Positions 4,698-64,000 of a stretch of DNA of 64,000 bases are shown in pieces. This DNA is from a virus (taxonomy: Duplodnaviria > Caudoviricetes). The position numbers and the translations under genes are program-made. Under the pieces are notes generated by a model. It saw nothing but the letters and a program-made list of their open reading frames with translations. It was not told the DNA's origin and made no database searches. The stretch is from the IMG/VR virus record IMGVR_UViG_3300025867_000005. One strand, written 5' to 3'. Positions within the stretch are counted from its first letter, which is position 1, and each line of letters starts with the position of its first letter.

Positions 4698-5167
4698 GAA
4701 GGTTTAAACATCTTTTGACAGACGGAAGCAGCCCGTGGATAAAGAACGGATTCAATCTCACGTCTCTTGACAACATTGTGATTGTTTCAGAAAACGGTGA
4801 ATCACAGAAGCTTTCCGAATACCTTGTTATGATTTCGGCAATGGCTGGACGTGCGGCGGGTACAGAGGCGGAAGACAGAATCGCGGCACTAGAAGAAATT
4901 TTAGATATCCCGTCAGCTTCTGGTGACGGAGAACTAAGTATAACAACCCCAAACATTCTGACATTAACAGGAGACCTTACGTTTTCTAAACCAGCGAAAG
5001 AAAAATGGGTGGTCAGATTATATCTGGAATTCACTTCTGATTCCAATTTGTTTTGGGAAGGAGAAGAACAGCCTTTCTTAACAGGCACTTCTGGACAGAA
5101 GAAAAGTGCTGAAATCATCAAGTTCGGGGAAGGGAAATTTTCACTATCCATCAAGGAGATTATTTAA
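4694..5167 (+). CDS. Hypothetical protein
   Basis: 157 aa; GTGA overlap with the upstream gene. Confidence 0.7.
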   Translation: MRRFKHLLTDGSSPWIKNGFNLTSLDNIVIVSENGESQKLSEYLVMISAMAGRAAGTEAEDRIAALEEILDIPSASGDGELSITTPNILTLTGDLTFSKPAKEKWVVRLYLEFTSDSNLFWEGEEQPFLTGTSGQKKSAEIIKFGEGKFSLSIKEII

Positions 5168-22808: not shown

Positions 22809-24737
22809 ATGGATACCAAAATGAAAGAAGCAATCACTTCACTTATTAAAAACCGCAGGTTTCAAAACTGGTGCTTGATTATATTGGCATCTGTTGTCGC
22901 GTATATCACGGGCAAACGGATTCTCAAATATTACGGTGTTCGTCCTAGCAAAAAGGATAAAAGAGATTTTGGAATTTCTATGGCCGAAAATCCAGCCAGA
23001 TTCCAGAATTCTTTCTGCCTTCCATTGCCGGTATTAAAGAATCAGCAAACGGTTTCAAGTTGTCATGACGATCAAACTGAGGTTATGACGAGATATGGAT
23101 GGAAATTCTTTAAAGAAATATCTTCTAGTGATTTATTAGCAAGTGTAAATCCAGAAGACGGAAACCTAATTTTTGAAAATCCTATCAATATATTGCGTCA
23201 AAGGTATATTGGTAAAATGATATATGGTACACATAGAAGTATTGATTTTATGGTTACACCGAACCATAAAATGATTGTAAAGAAATGGGAAGAAAGTAAA
23301 AGGGTTCTTTCTGAAAAATATTCGGTAGTAGATGCATCCGATCTTGGATTTTGTGTAGGACTTAGAACGGATTTCTATCAAAACAAAAAAAAGCAAGAAG
23401 TTATTATTTTACCAGAAGAAAAGGTGTCTAACGGGAATATCCTTCCGAGGATGGAAATAAAACTTTCTGATTGGGTTAAATTTTTAGGGATATATTTAGC
23501 AGAAGGTACGATGCTTGATCCTTCTCGCCATTATCCCATTCAGATAGCGGCCTTTAAAAACCGAGAGCGTTCATTTGTGGAAAATTTGTTTAACAGGATG
23601 GGAATTCACGGAGTGTCTTCTAAAGATCGTTATGTTGTTTCAAATAAAAGAATATGGTCTTTGTTGTCTGGATATGGTCTTTATAAGGTAAAATCATATG
23701 ATAAGTTTGTCCCTGATTTTATTTTCGATCTTGATTCTGAATTGATTAAAGATTTTCTTTATGGTTTCGCGATGGGAGATGGGTATTTCACCAAAGAAGG
23801 AGAAGTCCGTTATTATACATCTTCGAAGCTTCTGGCAGAACAATTAAGAATGTTGATGGTTATGAGTGGAAGTTCCACCACAATGTATACGAGGGATGTT
23901 CGTGGTAAAAAATGTTTTCTTAAAGACGGAAGGACTATCATTTCTAAACATATTGGATATGTTATAAACCAATGGAAAACGAATAGTTTAGGGCTAAACA
24001 GAAAAAAAAATATAAAAGAAGTTGACTATGATGGATATGTATATTGTGCTGAAGTACCAACATATCATACTCTTATTACAAGAAGAAATGGGAAAGTCCT
24101 ACTTTCCGGCAACTGCTGCGCACACAGCATGTCTTATATCGCGGAATCCATATTGCCGAAATCAGGAGATTATAACCTCGATAGGGTAAGCGTAGGCTGG
24201 ATATACGGCTACCGCCCAGCAGGTTATTATCAGGGAGAAGGAATGTATCCTCGGCAGGCTCTTAATACGATTCAGAAAAAAGGCGTCATCAGGCATAGGG
24301 ATTTCCCCTATAACGAAGAAGTCCCGGCCGTCATTAACCGAGTCAACGGAAGTCTGGATGATTTACTGAAGAAGGCGGAACCCAATAAGATACCGGTATT
24401 CTTCCAGTTGAAGACCGATGATGAAATCAAACAGTGCCTTACAAAATACGGACCTGTTTCTATTATGTATCCAGTTTACGATTCTTTCAATACTCCTGTT
24501 GAAGGGAAAATTGAAACAGCAAGAGGTAAGTTTTACGGATATCATCAAGTTACGCTTTACGGATGGACAGGGGATTGTTGGCTGATGGTAAACAATTGGG
24601 GCAACTGGGATGAAGACGGAATCGCATATATCCATAAATCTTATCCTTGGCAAGAAGCATGGGGACTTTCGGTTGATCCTTCAGCAGCGATAGAACCTCA
24701 AAAAAAAACTTCTTTTCTAAAATCGTTATTTGGATAA
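22809..24737 (+). CDS. Papain-like (C1) cysteine peptidase with an N-terminal membrane anchor, interrupted by an intein
   Basis: NQQTVSS|intein|CCAHS, EGMYPR, GPV, GYHQV..YGW, VNNWG..W...G. Confidence 0.85.
   Translation: MDTKMKEAITSLIKNRRFQNWCLIILASVVAYITGKRILKYYGVRPSKKDKRDFGISMAENPARFQNSFCLPLPVLKNQQTVSSCHDDQTEVMTRYGWKFFKEISSSDLLASVNPEDGNLIFENPINILRQRYIGKMIYGTHRSIDFMVTPNHKMIVKKWEESKRVLSEKYSVVDASDLGFCVGLRTDFYQNKKKQEVIILPEEKVSNGNILPRMEIKLSDWVKFLGIYLAEGTMLDPSRHYPIQIAAFKNRERSFVENLFNRMGIHGVSSKDRYVVSNKRIWSLLSGYGLYKVKSYDKFVPDFIFDLDSELIKDFLYGFAMGDGYFTKEGEVRYYTSSKLLAEQLRMLMVMSGSSTTMYTRDVRGKKCFLKDGRTIISKHIGYVINQWKTNSLGLNRKKNIKEVDYDGYVYCAEVPTYHTLITRRNGKVLLSGNCCAHSMSYIAESILPKSGDYNLDRVSVGWIYGYRPAGYYQGEGMYPRQALNTIQKKGVIRHRDFPYNEEVPAVINRVNGSLDDLLKKAEPNKIPVFFQLKTDDEIKQCLTKYGPVSIMYPVYDSFNTPVEGKIETARGKFYGYHQVTLYGWTGDCWLMVNNWGNWDEDGIAYIHKSYPWQEAWGLSVDPSAAIEPQKKTSFLKSLFG
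23061..24113 (+). mobile_element. Intein with LAGLIDADG endonuclease (351 aa)
   Basis: CHDDQTEV start, VTPNHKM block B, FLGIYLAEG and FLYGFAMGDG, VYCAEV, ends LSGN|C; DNA visibly AT-richer than flanks. Confidence 0.9.
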
Positions 24738-61189: not shown

Positions 61190-62179
61190 ATGAATAACGC
61201 AGATAAGTTAAACAAACGTGAGAACAAGTCTTCCGATAAAGGAAGCAAAAATGGTACTGGAGAGAAGAAGGGTTACGTGAAGATGGGTACGGTTCATGCG
61301 AAGTGGGAGCCGGGCACCACGACAGTAAGAGCTGTCGGTGATTTCTTTGAAACACACATGCATGGACTTTCTCCAAATGATTTCGGAAGCGTAGGCGTTA
61401 TGCCCAAATCTGCTTTCGGAGGCAAAGGTAAAGACTTTATCCCGTGGGAAGTGTGTTGCTTGGATTGGGATATGATCAATGATGAATACCGCAAGGAAAG
61501 ATCTTGTCCTTTCTGCAAGTTGAATTTCCGTGCTTCTTGCATGTTGAAGAAAGAAGACTTGTCAAAAGAAGATATCGCCAAGTATACAAGGATTAAGAAC
61601 GCTTGTCATGCTGGTTCTAAAATCCGTTGGAATATCATCGATAGAGAAAATCCGACATACACGATCGTCAATCCGGACGGAACAGAATCTGATGTCAAAG
61701 GATACAAGATCGGTGGTTTCGGTATGTCCGTCTTTAAGACAGGAATCAAGGGTCTGTTTGAGATGGCAGGTGGAGATATCGCAGATGTAGATAGCGGCAT
61801 TGACTTCAACCTTAAGCGTAGCAAAGACGAAAAAGGAAAGACTGTCTATGAAGCCGTTGCCGTTATGGAAAAAGGTGCGATGAAGTTTACTCCCCTTACT
61901 GATGAACAGAAATCTTGGACGCTTTGGAATATCCCTGAAATTTTCGGGAAGGACTGGAGCTTTGAAAAGATTTACCCGCTTATGCATGAAGAGTTCCGCG
62001 AATTGCTGGACATGACGGATGAAGAGTTCCGTGAATTCAGCGGCTATACCGGAAAGAAGGCTGAAGAGCCTACAGAAGAAAAAGAAGACAAGAAAGATGT
62101 AAAAAAAAACAAGAAGGTAAAGTCAGCTCCTGTGCAGGAACAACAGGAACCGCAGGACGAAGAGATTCTTCCATTCTAA
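61190..62179 (+). CDS. gp32-like single-stranded DNA-binding protein
   Basis: H...C...CPFC, NIIDR, DI.D...G.DF...R...T.Y; acidic tail ending DEEILPF; upstream of RecA. Confidence 0.75.
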   Translation: MNNADKLNKRENKSSDKGSKNGTGEKKGYVKMGTVHAKWEPGTTTVRAVGDFFETHMHGLSPNDFGSVGVMPKSAFGGKGKDFIPWEVCCLDWDMINDEYRKERSCPFCKLNFRASCMLKKEDLSKEDIAKYTRIKNACHAGSKIRWNIIDRENPTYTIVNPDGTESDVKGYKIGGFGMSVFKTGIKGLFEMAGGDIADVDSGIDFNLKRSKDEKGKTVYEAVAVMEKGAMKFTPLTDEQKSWTLWNIPEIFGKDWSFEKIYPLMHEEFRELLDMTDEEFREFSGYTGKKAEEPTEEKEDKKDVKKNKKVKSAPVQEQQEPQDEEILPF

Positions 62180-62331
62180 AGGAAGATCCTGTAGAAACAT
62201 CGAATGAAGCATCTGATTCTTTGGGCTTGTCTGTCGCCAAGAGTTTTCCTTGTTGGGGATATTATGATCCCAATGAATCAGAATGCAAATCTTGTAAGTT
62301 CAAATCCGAATGTGTAAAGAACACGAAGTAA
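62101..62331 (+). other. -1 frame extension of SSB encoding a Cys4 domain, reachable via an A9 run
   Basis: Frame open from 62065 to TAA 62329-62331 with no ATG; encodes CWGYYDPNESECKSCKFKSEC. Confidence 0.6.
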
Positions 62332-62344
62332 AGGTATAAAAACA

Positions 62345-64000
62345 ATGGCTAAAGAAGCAAAAGCAAAGCCTACTCGCTTTGAAAACATGCAGAAATTGGC
62401 TGACCTTATCAATAAGAGTCAGTGGGGTGGTGAAAACCACGATATCGCGGGTGTCCTTGGTGGAACCGTAGTCTCAAACGTGGAACGTATCTCAACGACA
62501 TGTAGAGACATCGATTGGGCGTGGGGTGGTGGTTTGCCAATAGGTAAAATCGTAGAACTCTTCGGCGGAGAATCTTGTCTTGATAAGGACACTTTTGTCC
62601 ATTATCAGACATGGAAGAATGGCAAGCAGATTAACGATAAGGGCGGAACGATAGAACGTCTTTATGAACGTTTCACGGGTGACACCGCGACAGGTAAGAA
62701 ACAAGGAAGACATCTTCAGGAAAAAGATTGCGATTTCTTTGTAATTTCTTGTGACAATGAAATGAAAATGGTACGCAATAGGGTTATCGGAGTTGTTAAA
62801 ACAGGAAAGAAGACTTGTTTCGAGGTTACGACAGAAGATGGACAGAAGATTACATCAACTCTTGAACACAAATTCATGGTGGAATCTGGATTTAAACCTC
62901 TTTCTGATTTGAAAATCGGAGATGTCGTCTATGTCCACAACAATACAAGGATACATGGGCAAAAAGATCGTGAATATTATCCTGAAATTATGGTTAAATA
63001 TCATCCACACGCGAAAACAAAGATTGTGAATGGTTATACCTATTTCCGCGTAAGGAAATCACATGCGGTTCTTGAAGCAGATAGGAATCAAATGTCGTTT
63101 GACGAATATCAACACTTTTTGAATACGGCTTCAAAAGAAGAAATCAACAGAATAAAAACGATTCCAGAAGGCCTACATGTCCATCATATTGATGAAAATG
63201 TGAACAATAACACTATTTCTAATCTTTTAGTGATTAATCCAAAAGATCATGGTGTTTATCATTCGAAAATGAAGCTTAAAAATCTTAGTTTTGTAGCGGC
63301 TCCTGTCAGGATTACTTCAATTGTGAACGTAGGAGAACGCGACACTTATGACATTAAGTGTGATTTCCCTAACAATAACTTCGTAGCCAACGACTTTGTT
63401 GTTCATAATTCCGGCAAATCCACACTTGCTTATCACATCATCGCTAGTTTCCAAGACAAATATCCTGATAAGGGAATCTTGCTTTTGGACACTGAACACA
63501 GCTATGATCCTCTCTATGCAGAAGCTCTTGGCGTTAAGGCACAAGGGATTATCCACACTGAAGCTGAATCGGGAACTGATGCGTTGAATATCGCTAAGCT
63601 TGCTGTAGAATCAGAATGTGGTGTCGGACTGGTTATTATTGACAGCATCGCGGCTCTTACTACAAAGAGCGATGATGAAGGGGATATCGGAGATCAGACG
63701 ATGGCAGAACAGGCTAGAATGGTCAGCCAGGCTATGCGTGTTTTGAACAGCTTGATTACCAAGCACAAGATCACGTTGCTTTGTACCAACCAAGTCCGTG
63801 AAGCCGTTGGACAGTGTTTTGATTATAGCACTCCAATTACGCTTAAAGATGGCACTATCATGGAAATCGGAAAACTTGTTAATCAAAAGATTAACTGCGA
63901 AGTTCTTTCATATGATCCTGTTTCAAACAAAATAGAACCGAAGACGGTTACTAATTGGTTCGACAATGGACCAATGGCAGATGGCGAACATTTCTTACAG
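62345..64000 (+). CDS. recA: RecA recombinase with two inteins (truncated by window end; absent from the ORF track)
   Basis: Manual translation: IST....D.A.GGGLP.GKIVELFGGES|intein|SGKST, DTEH..DP.YA.ALGV, IIDSIAAL, QAR..SQA.R, TNQVRE.VG|intein. Confidence 0.93.
   Translation, partial: MAKEAKAKPTRFENMQKLADLINKSQWGGENHDIAGVLGGTVVSNVERISTTCRDIDWAWGGGLPIGKIVELFGGESCLDKDTFVHYQTWKNGKQINDKGGTIERLYERFTGDTATGKKQGRHLQEKDCDFFVISCDNEMKMVRNRVIGVVKTGKKTCFEVTTEDGQKITSTLEHKFMVESGFKPLSDLKIGDVVYVHNNTRIHGQKDREYYPEIMVKYHPHAKTKIVNGYTYFRVRKSHAVLEADRNQMSFDEYQHFLNTASKEEINRIKTIPEGLHVHHIDENVNNNTISNLLVINPKDHGVYHSKMKLKNLSFVAAPVRITSIVNVGERDTYDIKCDFPNNNFVANDFVVHNSGKSTLAYHIIASFQDKYPDKGILLLDTEHSYDPLYAEALGVKAQGIIHTEAESGTDALNIAKLAVESECGVGLVIIDSIAALTTKSDDEGDIGDQTMAEQARMVSQAMRVLNSLITKHKITLLCTNQVREAVGQCFDYSTPITLKDGTIMEIGKLVNQKINCEVLSYDPVSNKIEPKTVTNWFDNGPMADGEHFLQ
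62576..63409 (+). mobile_element. Intein with HNH endonuclease (278 aa) in RecA Walker A
   Basis: CLDKDT start, STLEHKF block B, VHHIDEN..NN.ISNL......H...H, TYDI, VVHN|S. Confidence 0.9.
63815..64000 (+). mobile_element. Second RecA intein (5' part)
   Basis: CFDYSTPITLKDG....IGKLV.....EVLSYD directly after NQVREAVGQ (loop L2 region). Confidence 0.85.

Follow-up and report, generated by a model that had tools for sequence, protein, structure and literature searches.

Results

Genes and reading frames at the locus

The stretch of DNA analysed here (64,000 nucleotides; hereafter the window) comes from an uncultured phage whose IMG/VR record spans 304 kb and is rated complete. At 61190..62179 on the + strand, in a region of replication and recombination genes, lies an SSB-like gene whose frame-0 product (P0001, 329 aa) was assigned on the basis of the ORF, its translation and a PHROG family match. 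Close to the end of this gene, an A9 run at 62101..62109 (+), a candidate site for slippage or a -1 shift, is read as GTA AAA AAA AAC in frame 0 and lies 68 nt upstream of the TAA at 62177-62179 that terminates the protein after ...QDEEILPF. An earlier reading of the sequence alone (the sequence-only reading) had described the run, about 70 nt before the stop, as well as the DEEILPF end, and the letters and the translation bear out both. No stop interrupts the -1 frame from 62065 up to the TAA at 62329-62331, and this frame contains neither ATG nor GTG, its only common start codons being TTG 62221 and TTG 62227; the accompanying claims that this frame is open to 62331, is devoid of ATG and fills the gap to recA are likewise correct. 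In the +1 frame, a TAA at 62118..62120 (+), read from the sequence and the same in the relative L002, closes the frame six codons past the run, and loss of one A or gain of two would consequently lead to a tail-less protein ending in ...VKK(K)TRR.

Downstream of the SSB gene and on the same strand lies a recA/UvsX-like gene with inteins (62345..64000; Pfam RecA, 2e-40, together with Intein_splicing and HNH_3), the ATG of which, at 62345, is 165 nt after the SSB ORF and 13 nt past the -1-frame stop. The + strand between the SSB gene and recA is without a promoter-like or terminator-like site, and the two genes are probably co-transcribed. The 3' end of the window falls within the second intein of recA; the recA ORF of the relative (L002:5147-8155, 1002 aa) has two intein sites, the same as those of the window recA, and inteins and inserted genes are abundant throughout the phage genome. 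Outside the window, at G000:C1:192160-210937, the genome carries a cluster of 29 tRNA genes (ARAGORN) that includes tRNA-Lys(UUU), tRNA-Lys(CUU) and two copies of tRNA-Asn(GUU), the decoders of the slippery codons; several tRNAs of the cluster measure 86-99 nt, which may reflect introns or miscalling.

The frame-0 tail is a conserved end of a probable gp32-like SSB

To place P0001 in a family, we combined a word-index search, which yielded two relatives, with a profile search, which yielded six more at 39-43% identity, giving nine lineages. Seven of the nine family members matched phrog_1192 ('single strand DNA binding protein') with a best E of 4e-11, while the window protein alone reached only E 0.01. 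The window SSB had no match in Pfam (none to gp32 or SSB) or in NCBIfam, and a PDB sequence search with it matched nothing. Five residues (H56, H58, C90, C106 and C109) are invariant across the nine lineages, a His/Cys set which we take to resemble the His/Cys3 zinc site of T4 gp32. The AlphaFold model of the SSB is poor (pLDDT 40). At the level of PHROG annotation, we accept P0001 as a probable gp32-like SSB.

A scan of viral contigs with the SSB alignment returned no true relative, the match to L015 being spurious; GenBank phages gave neither a DNA nor a tblastn match, and among 400 Bacteroidales-order genomes only the already known MAG was matched. The sole relative with DNA is L002 (identical to L003), a contig of 124 kb that is filed under a Paludibacteraceae MAG, the SSB of which is 90% identical to that of the window.

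The LPF end recurs in six of the nine lineages, in relatives of ~40-46% identity, where it follows an otherwise variable acidic tail. As judged from this conservation, frame 0 downstream of the run is the real end of the SSB. This bears directly on the possibility that the A9 run is a homopolymer sequencing or assembly error and that the true gene is one continuous frame. Homopolymers are indeed error-prone in some sequencing chemistries; however, because the LPF end is kept in distant relatives, the true gene is not a continuous -1 frame hidden by such an error. Moreover, the same run of nine is present in the record, in the independent relative L002 (at 4915-4923) and in two Logan assemblies (activated-sludge runs, depth 24 and 67), which are letter-identical over 61190-62400 and may be the source samples. 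We conclude that the A9 run is not an assembly slip, and an explanation of the locus by sequencing error is extremely improbable.

A start-less stretch in the -1 frame has a coding signature

In the overlap between the two frames (62110..62178, +), the translations give the acidic tail in frame 0 and a Gly/Ser/Thr/Ala-rich would-be linker in the -1 frame. We scored codon usage by log-odds, with 241 long ORFs from this genome as the training set; the overlap scored 6.2 in frame 0 and a neutral -0.6 in the -1 frame. Comparison with L002 revealed two indels in the overlap, of 9 nt and 3 nt, and poor conservation of the -1 reading. An open -1 frame over the overlap arose by chance in 11% of synonymous resamplings and is present at 16% of gene ends in the genome, and the openness of the -1 frame over the overlap is, by itself, not significant.

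What does exceed chance is the coding signature of the start-less acidic stretch KEDPVETSNEASDS (62179..62220, +), which runs in the -1 frame from the stop of frame 0 up to TTG 62221 and stands out by codon usage and by substitutions. The codon score of these 42 nt is 6.43 compared with a mean of 3.55 for true in-frame windows of equal length, and shuffled sequences attained this score in 0.3% of cases, or 0.9% when free of stops, and intergenic windows in 1.1% (P ~0.003-0.011). Relative to L002, the stretch has four synonymous and two non-synonymous changes, corresponding to a pN/pS of 0.14, similar to that of the Cys4 ORF and not far from the 0.07 of the SSB core; with 22% synonymous sites, the binomial P for at least four synonymous changes out of six is ~0.02. 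The stretch is free of indels between the two genomes, whereas a genuine spacer with comparable identity, upstream of the SSB gene, shows three, none a multiple of 3 in length. The selection tests on this stretch and on the module downstream of it rest on 6 and 13 substitutions (19 in all) relative to one genome with 90% protein identity. On this basis, 62179-62220 has the behaviour of a coding stretch when read in the -1 frame.

The -1 frame ends in a portable Cys4 module under purifying selection

The start-less stretch leads into an ORF of 36 codons that begins at TTG 62221 and ends with the -1-frame stop (62221..62331, +), and that we define as the Cys4 module based on pN/pS and related modules. 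Its motif, C-W-G-x8-C-x2-C-x5-C, lies at 62251-62313 at the end of the -1 frame, confirming at the level of sequence the previously claimed acidic linker plus Cys4 motif. Over the 36 codons, the window and L002 differ by seven synonymous and six non-synonymous changes, giving a pN/pS of 0.19 in this frame compared with 2.0 and 1.5 in the other two frames. An overlapping ATG ORF (62204..62317, +, frame 0, 37 aa, hydrophobic) is open in both genomes, has a pN/pS of ~2 and is probably non-coding. The substitution pattern indicates that the Cys4 module is a real coding element under purifying selection.

These comparisons weigh on a reading that involves no functional recoding at all, in which the Cys4 ORF is left over, silent or in decay, for instance from a gene disrupted in a genome with many mobile elements, and any fusion to the SSB by slippage on the A9 run would be noise. 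Consistent with a remnant, a search for RNA runs covering this stretch was blank, no in-frame SSB-Cys4 fusion was present among 1.84 billion representative proteins, inteins and inserted genes abound in the genome, and the number of A9 runs fits base composition (see below). Against it, pN/pS is 0.18 over 50 codons, L002 keeps all four Cys residues together with PCWG, and neither genome has acquired an indel or a stop despite change at ~40-57% of synonymous sites. We therefore consider a remnant quite unlikely.

The module is not confined to this locus. A HMMER search with the 50-residue tail against the same 1.84 billion representative proteins gave two true matches: P0006, with two motif copies and a SAP domain (E 3e-6), and P0008, with two motif copies of which the last is C-terminal (E 6e-4). 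Two further proteins, P0005 (WG repeats) and P0007, were false matches of the tail profile. A DNA pattern scan of IMG/VR added a C-terminal motif in an ORF of L018, where it may form a stand-alone module as a 47-codon ATG ORF, and an N-terminal motif in a 252-aa protein of L019 and L020. In all of these (P0006, P0008, L018 and L019/L020), the spacing C-[WF]-G-x8-C-x2-C-x5-C is invariable, and the genome analysed here has a single copy of the motif. The 252-aa protein is encoded directly after a sigma-70 region-2-like gene in both contigs (L019:2362-3919 and L020; IMG/VR, 181 kb and 73 kb) and consists of the N-terminal Cys4, a Pro/Ala/Val-rich linker and a C-terminal domain of no known type.

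Searches of the tail in Pfam, NCBIfam and PDB sequences gave no match, and phrog_13400 (function unknown) gave a faint shared match; a scan of viral contigs with the tail alignment returned false matches only (L004-L014, sharing a common GYYDPKE), and the ESM Atlas provided no usable lead. AlphaFold predicted a hairpin and a short helix for the 50-residue tail in a weak model (pLDDT 56). Its occurrences mark Cys4 as an unnamed portable mini-domain that is usually joined by a linker to another part, at either the N- or the C-terminus. The module presumably binds metal (Zn or an Fe-S cluster).

Entry into the module is most likely from the SSB gene

Two routes could bring ribosomes to the Cys4 module. 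Either they arrive in the -1 frame from the SSB gene or the module is a separate 36-aa protein that starts at TTG 62221 or TTG 62227, by weak independent initiation or by re-initiation after the SSB stop 42 nt upstream, with the A9 run being an ordinary Lys-Lys-Asn run. Genes of this phage have a G-rich, AAGGA-like signal at -12..-8; an SD sequence is present before the SSB gene (GAGG) and before recA (AAGG), and none precedes TTG 62221 in the window or in L002. A separate protein is favoured by the presence of both TTG codons in L002, by the very different contexts in which the module occurs (possibly including the small ATG ORF of L018), by the rarity of a clear signal in this phage (AAGG or AGGA precedes only ~1/3 of its genes), by the existence of A9 runs without recoding in other genes, and by the lack of significance of the open -1 frame over the overlap. 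However, TTG is a rare start codon and here lacks an SD sequence, and the 42 nt before it resemble same-frame coding sequence both in composition and in evolution. No counterpart of 27-88 aa was recorded among 5.8 billion proteins, a result that reflects only that gene callers have missed such ORFs. Because the start-less stretch is coding-like and the TTG lacks an SD sequence, entry is most likely from the SSB gene.

The relative narrows down where this entry would occur. The -1 frame of L002 becomes open no more than 12 nt ahead of the A9 run, placing entry between the region of the run and the SSB stop, and within this interval the A9 run is the sole slippery site; in the window, likewise, no other X_XXY_YYZ pattern occurs from the last stop of the -1 frame to the stop of frame 0. 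Thus, codon usage, substitutions, indels, start signals and the point of entry together favour a trans-frame product over an independent 36-aa peptide, and we regard the separate protein as somewhat unlikely. The sequence-only reading had named independent translation from TTG 62221 as one observation that would refute it; such a start is argued against by the coding-like 42 nt upstream and the absent SD sequence. Behind the run, the alternative frame codes for a product under selection and offers no ATG or GTG at which that product could start, the selection being judged from a small total of 19 substitutions. What the data establish is the anatomy of the locus, that both tails are coding sequence under selection, and that the start-less stretch behaves as coding.

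The A9 run as a candidate slippage site

The A9 run offers two heptamers in the frame required for a -1 shift, A_AAA_AAA (62101-62107) and A_AAA_AAC (62104-62110). As a measure of how unusual such a run is, we counted A9/T9 runs in the 304 kb and found five, compared with ~6 expected from base composition; all three A9 runs on the + strand of the window lie within ORFs. One of these served as a control. It is located at 24700-24708 (CAA AAA AAA ACT), in a peptidase-like ORF (22809..24737, +) whose stop follows 27 nt later; the -1 frame there stops after six codons, with no sign of recoding, and yet the run is equally conserved, being retained by the relative L016, where local identity is 76-79%. 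Because the control run is also kept, conservation of the SSB run at the distance of L002 says nothing about its function. The sequence-only reading had proposed conservation of the run and of both tails as a check; the run and the -1 frame are kept in L002 and LPF in six of nine lineages, and the control run is kept as well. The 642-aa product of the control ORF is roughly double the length of the L016 counterpart (reverse strand, 315 aa); the extra part, which is probably an intein or inserted element without equivalent in L016, contains another A9 run, at 24002 (read RKKN).

A ribosomal -1 frameshift and transcriptional slippage make different demands on such a site. A heptamer in the zero frame is present at the SSB run, and a stimulator, whether a conserved structure beginning 5-9 nt past the heptamer or an SD-like element, is not: downstream of the run, no RNA structure is common to the window and L002, the folds being different with z-scores of -1.95 and -0.54, and the sequence upstream is without an SD-like or GGAG-like element. 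In addition, the 9-nt deletion in the overlap falls in the predicted hairpin and removes it. With no shared fold and the hairpin deleted, a classic stimulated ribosomal -1 frameshift is not supported. Transcriptional slippage calls for a homopolymer of at least nine A or T in a coding region, and the run provides exactly this. Runs of nine A or T give rise to efficient RNA-polymerase slippage in bacteria, as used in Thermus dnaX, and in E. coli A_AAA_AAC and A_AAA_AAA are far less shift-prone than A_AAA_AAG (PMC5009743). Because polymerase slippage needs no structure and is efficient on nine A or T, it is the likelier route.

A lysine-rich motif marks the position of the run throughout the family

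We compared the relatives of ~40% identity at the protein level. At the position of the A9 run, the motif [S/V/T]-K-K-[N/K] is present in nine of nine lineages, and in the clade formed by P0009-P0014, KKN or KKK is the sole basic patch in a strongly acidic tail. Within this clade, the called proteins P0011 (from three separate contigs), P0013 and P0014 end at the motif or at most five codons past it, while their sisters P0009 and P0010 continue to LPF. Early stops next to sisters with LPF are the pattern expected if the length of the A-run varies between lineages and the tail lies in another frame. This raises the tentative and on balance doubtful idea that, within a clade of large uncultured phages, the A-run at KKN acts family-wide as a switch for the SSB C-terminus. 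Which of the LPF-tipped and tail-less forms frame 0 encodes might then vary with the length of the run and with the lineage, and slippage might supply the other. On the same speculative idea, the phage studied here would have a third outcome, in which Cys4 replaces the partner-recruiting tip and might confer different partners or sensing of DNA or redox state.

Discussion

Our best explanation of the locus, in which we have moderate confidence, is that the SSB is a two-product gene and that a functional trans-frame SSB-Cys4 product is made from it. The sequence-only reading had arrived at one gene with two SSB isoforms; what stands in favour of this proposal is that both tails are selected coding sequence, while the shift joining core and Cys4 tail is a step for which we see about even grounds for belief and doubt. 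We infer the occurrence, rate and mechanism of this shift, together with metal binding by the tail and its function, from the arrangement of the locus, and envisage them as follows. Most messages and ribosomes would remain in frame 0 and yield the 329-aa SSB with its acidic tail and LPF, the kind of tip by which SSBs recruit partner proteins. A fraction would shift by -1 at the A9 run, through the addition of one A by RNA polymerase (A10) or through slipping of the ribosome on A_AAA_AAA or A_AAA_AAC. The shifted product, of ~380 aa, would have the same DNA-binding core followed by a Gly/Ser/Thr-rich and acidic linker and Cys4, and would lack the LPF tip. In terms of run length, the LPF-tipped SSB would come from messages with A9 or A12, the Cys4-tailed SSB from those with A10 (or from a ribosomal slip by -1), and the tail-less SSB ending in ...VKK(K)TRR, perhaps as a third form, from those with A8 or A11. 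The role of the Cys4-tailed isoform could be an altered choice of partners, contact with DNA as in the SAP-linked homologue, or redox sensing.

If correct, this explanation has implications for how the phage replisome is controlled. SSB tails are a hub that recruits replication, recombination and repair proteins to single-stranded DNA. By shifting frame within a single gene, the phage would set the ratio between tip-bearing, tip-less and alternative-tip SSB, adding a new layer of replisome control. The module itself is an unnamed portable domain present in several phage proteins, one of them with a SAP DNA-binding domain.

Bacterial SSBs end in an acidic tip, ...DDDIPF, and T7 gp2.5 ends in a terminal Phe. 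Among phage proteins, P0001 is most reminiscent of T4 gp32-type SSBs as we know them, with which it appears to share a basic N-terminus, a His/Cys set and a long acidic tail with an aromatic end, as well as a gene position beside recA/UvsX and other replication genes. It differs in that its family assignment comes from PHROG 1192 only, with no Pfam match to gp32 or SSB. No gp32-type SSB that comes with a second, alternative tail is known to us, and our literature search found neither such a protein nor recoding in any SSB gene. As for the Cys4 tail, C-x2-C-x5-C is the [4Fe-4S] spacing in the endonuclease III/MutY loop, AddB/Cas4 and WhiB-like proteins. The module shares with [4Fe-4S] DNA enzymes this spacing of its last three Cys residues and the setting in DNA metabolism; it differs from them in that its first Cys lies 11 residues upstream and in the absence of a sequence match in Pfam, NCBIfam or PDB, and its metal may equally be zinc.

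With respect to recoding, the locus has affinities to two groups of known systems. Like -1 frameshifting in E. coli dnaX and in IS1/IS3 elements, it has the heptamers A_AAA_AAA and A_AAA_AAC in the right frame, and the trans-frame product of the IS elements likewise joins two functional modules. Unlike the E. coli dnaX/IS type, the SSB site has no shared stem-loop or pseudoknot and no SD-like stimulator upstream. The closer parallel is dnaX of Thermus thermophilus (tau/gamma), in which, as here, a replication gene carries a run of nine A in the coding strand; in both cases, on our reading of the SSB, no RNA structure is needed and the products share an N-terminal body and differ in the C-terminal part that binds partners (PMC5009743). 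The outcomes are not the same. In Thermus dnaX, a stop follows immediately in the shifted frames and the protein is shortened, whereas in the SSB gene only the +1 frame truncates and the -1 frame would add a 76-residue Cys4 tail. Provided that it is real, which in our judgement is evenly balanced, recoding of the SSB would be a new variation on the dnaX type, parallel to tau/gamma and acting on the SSB hub.
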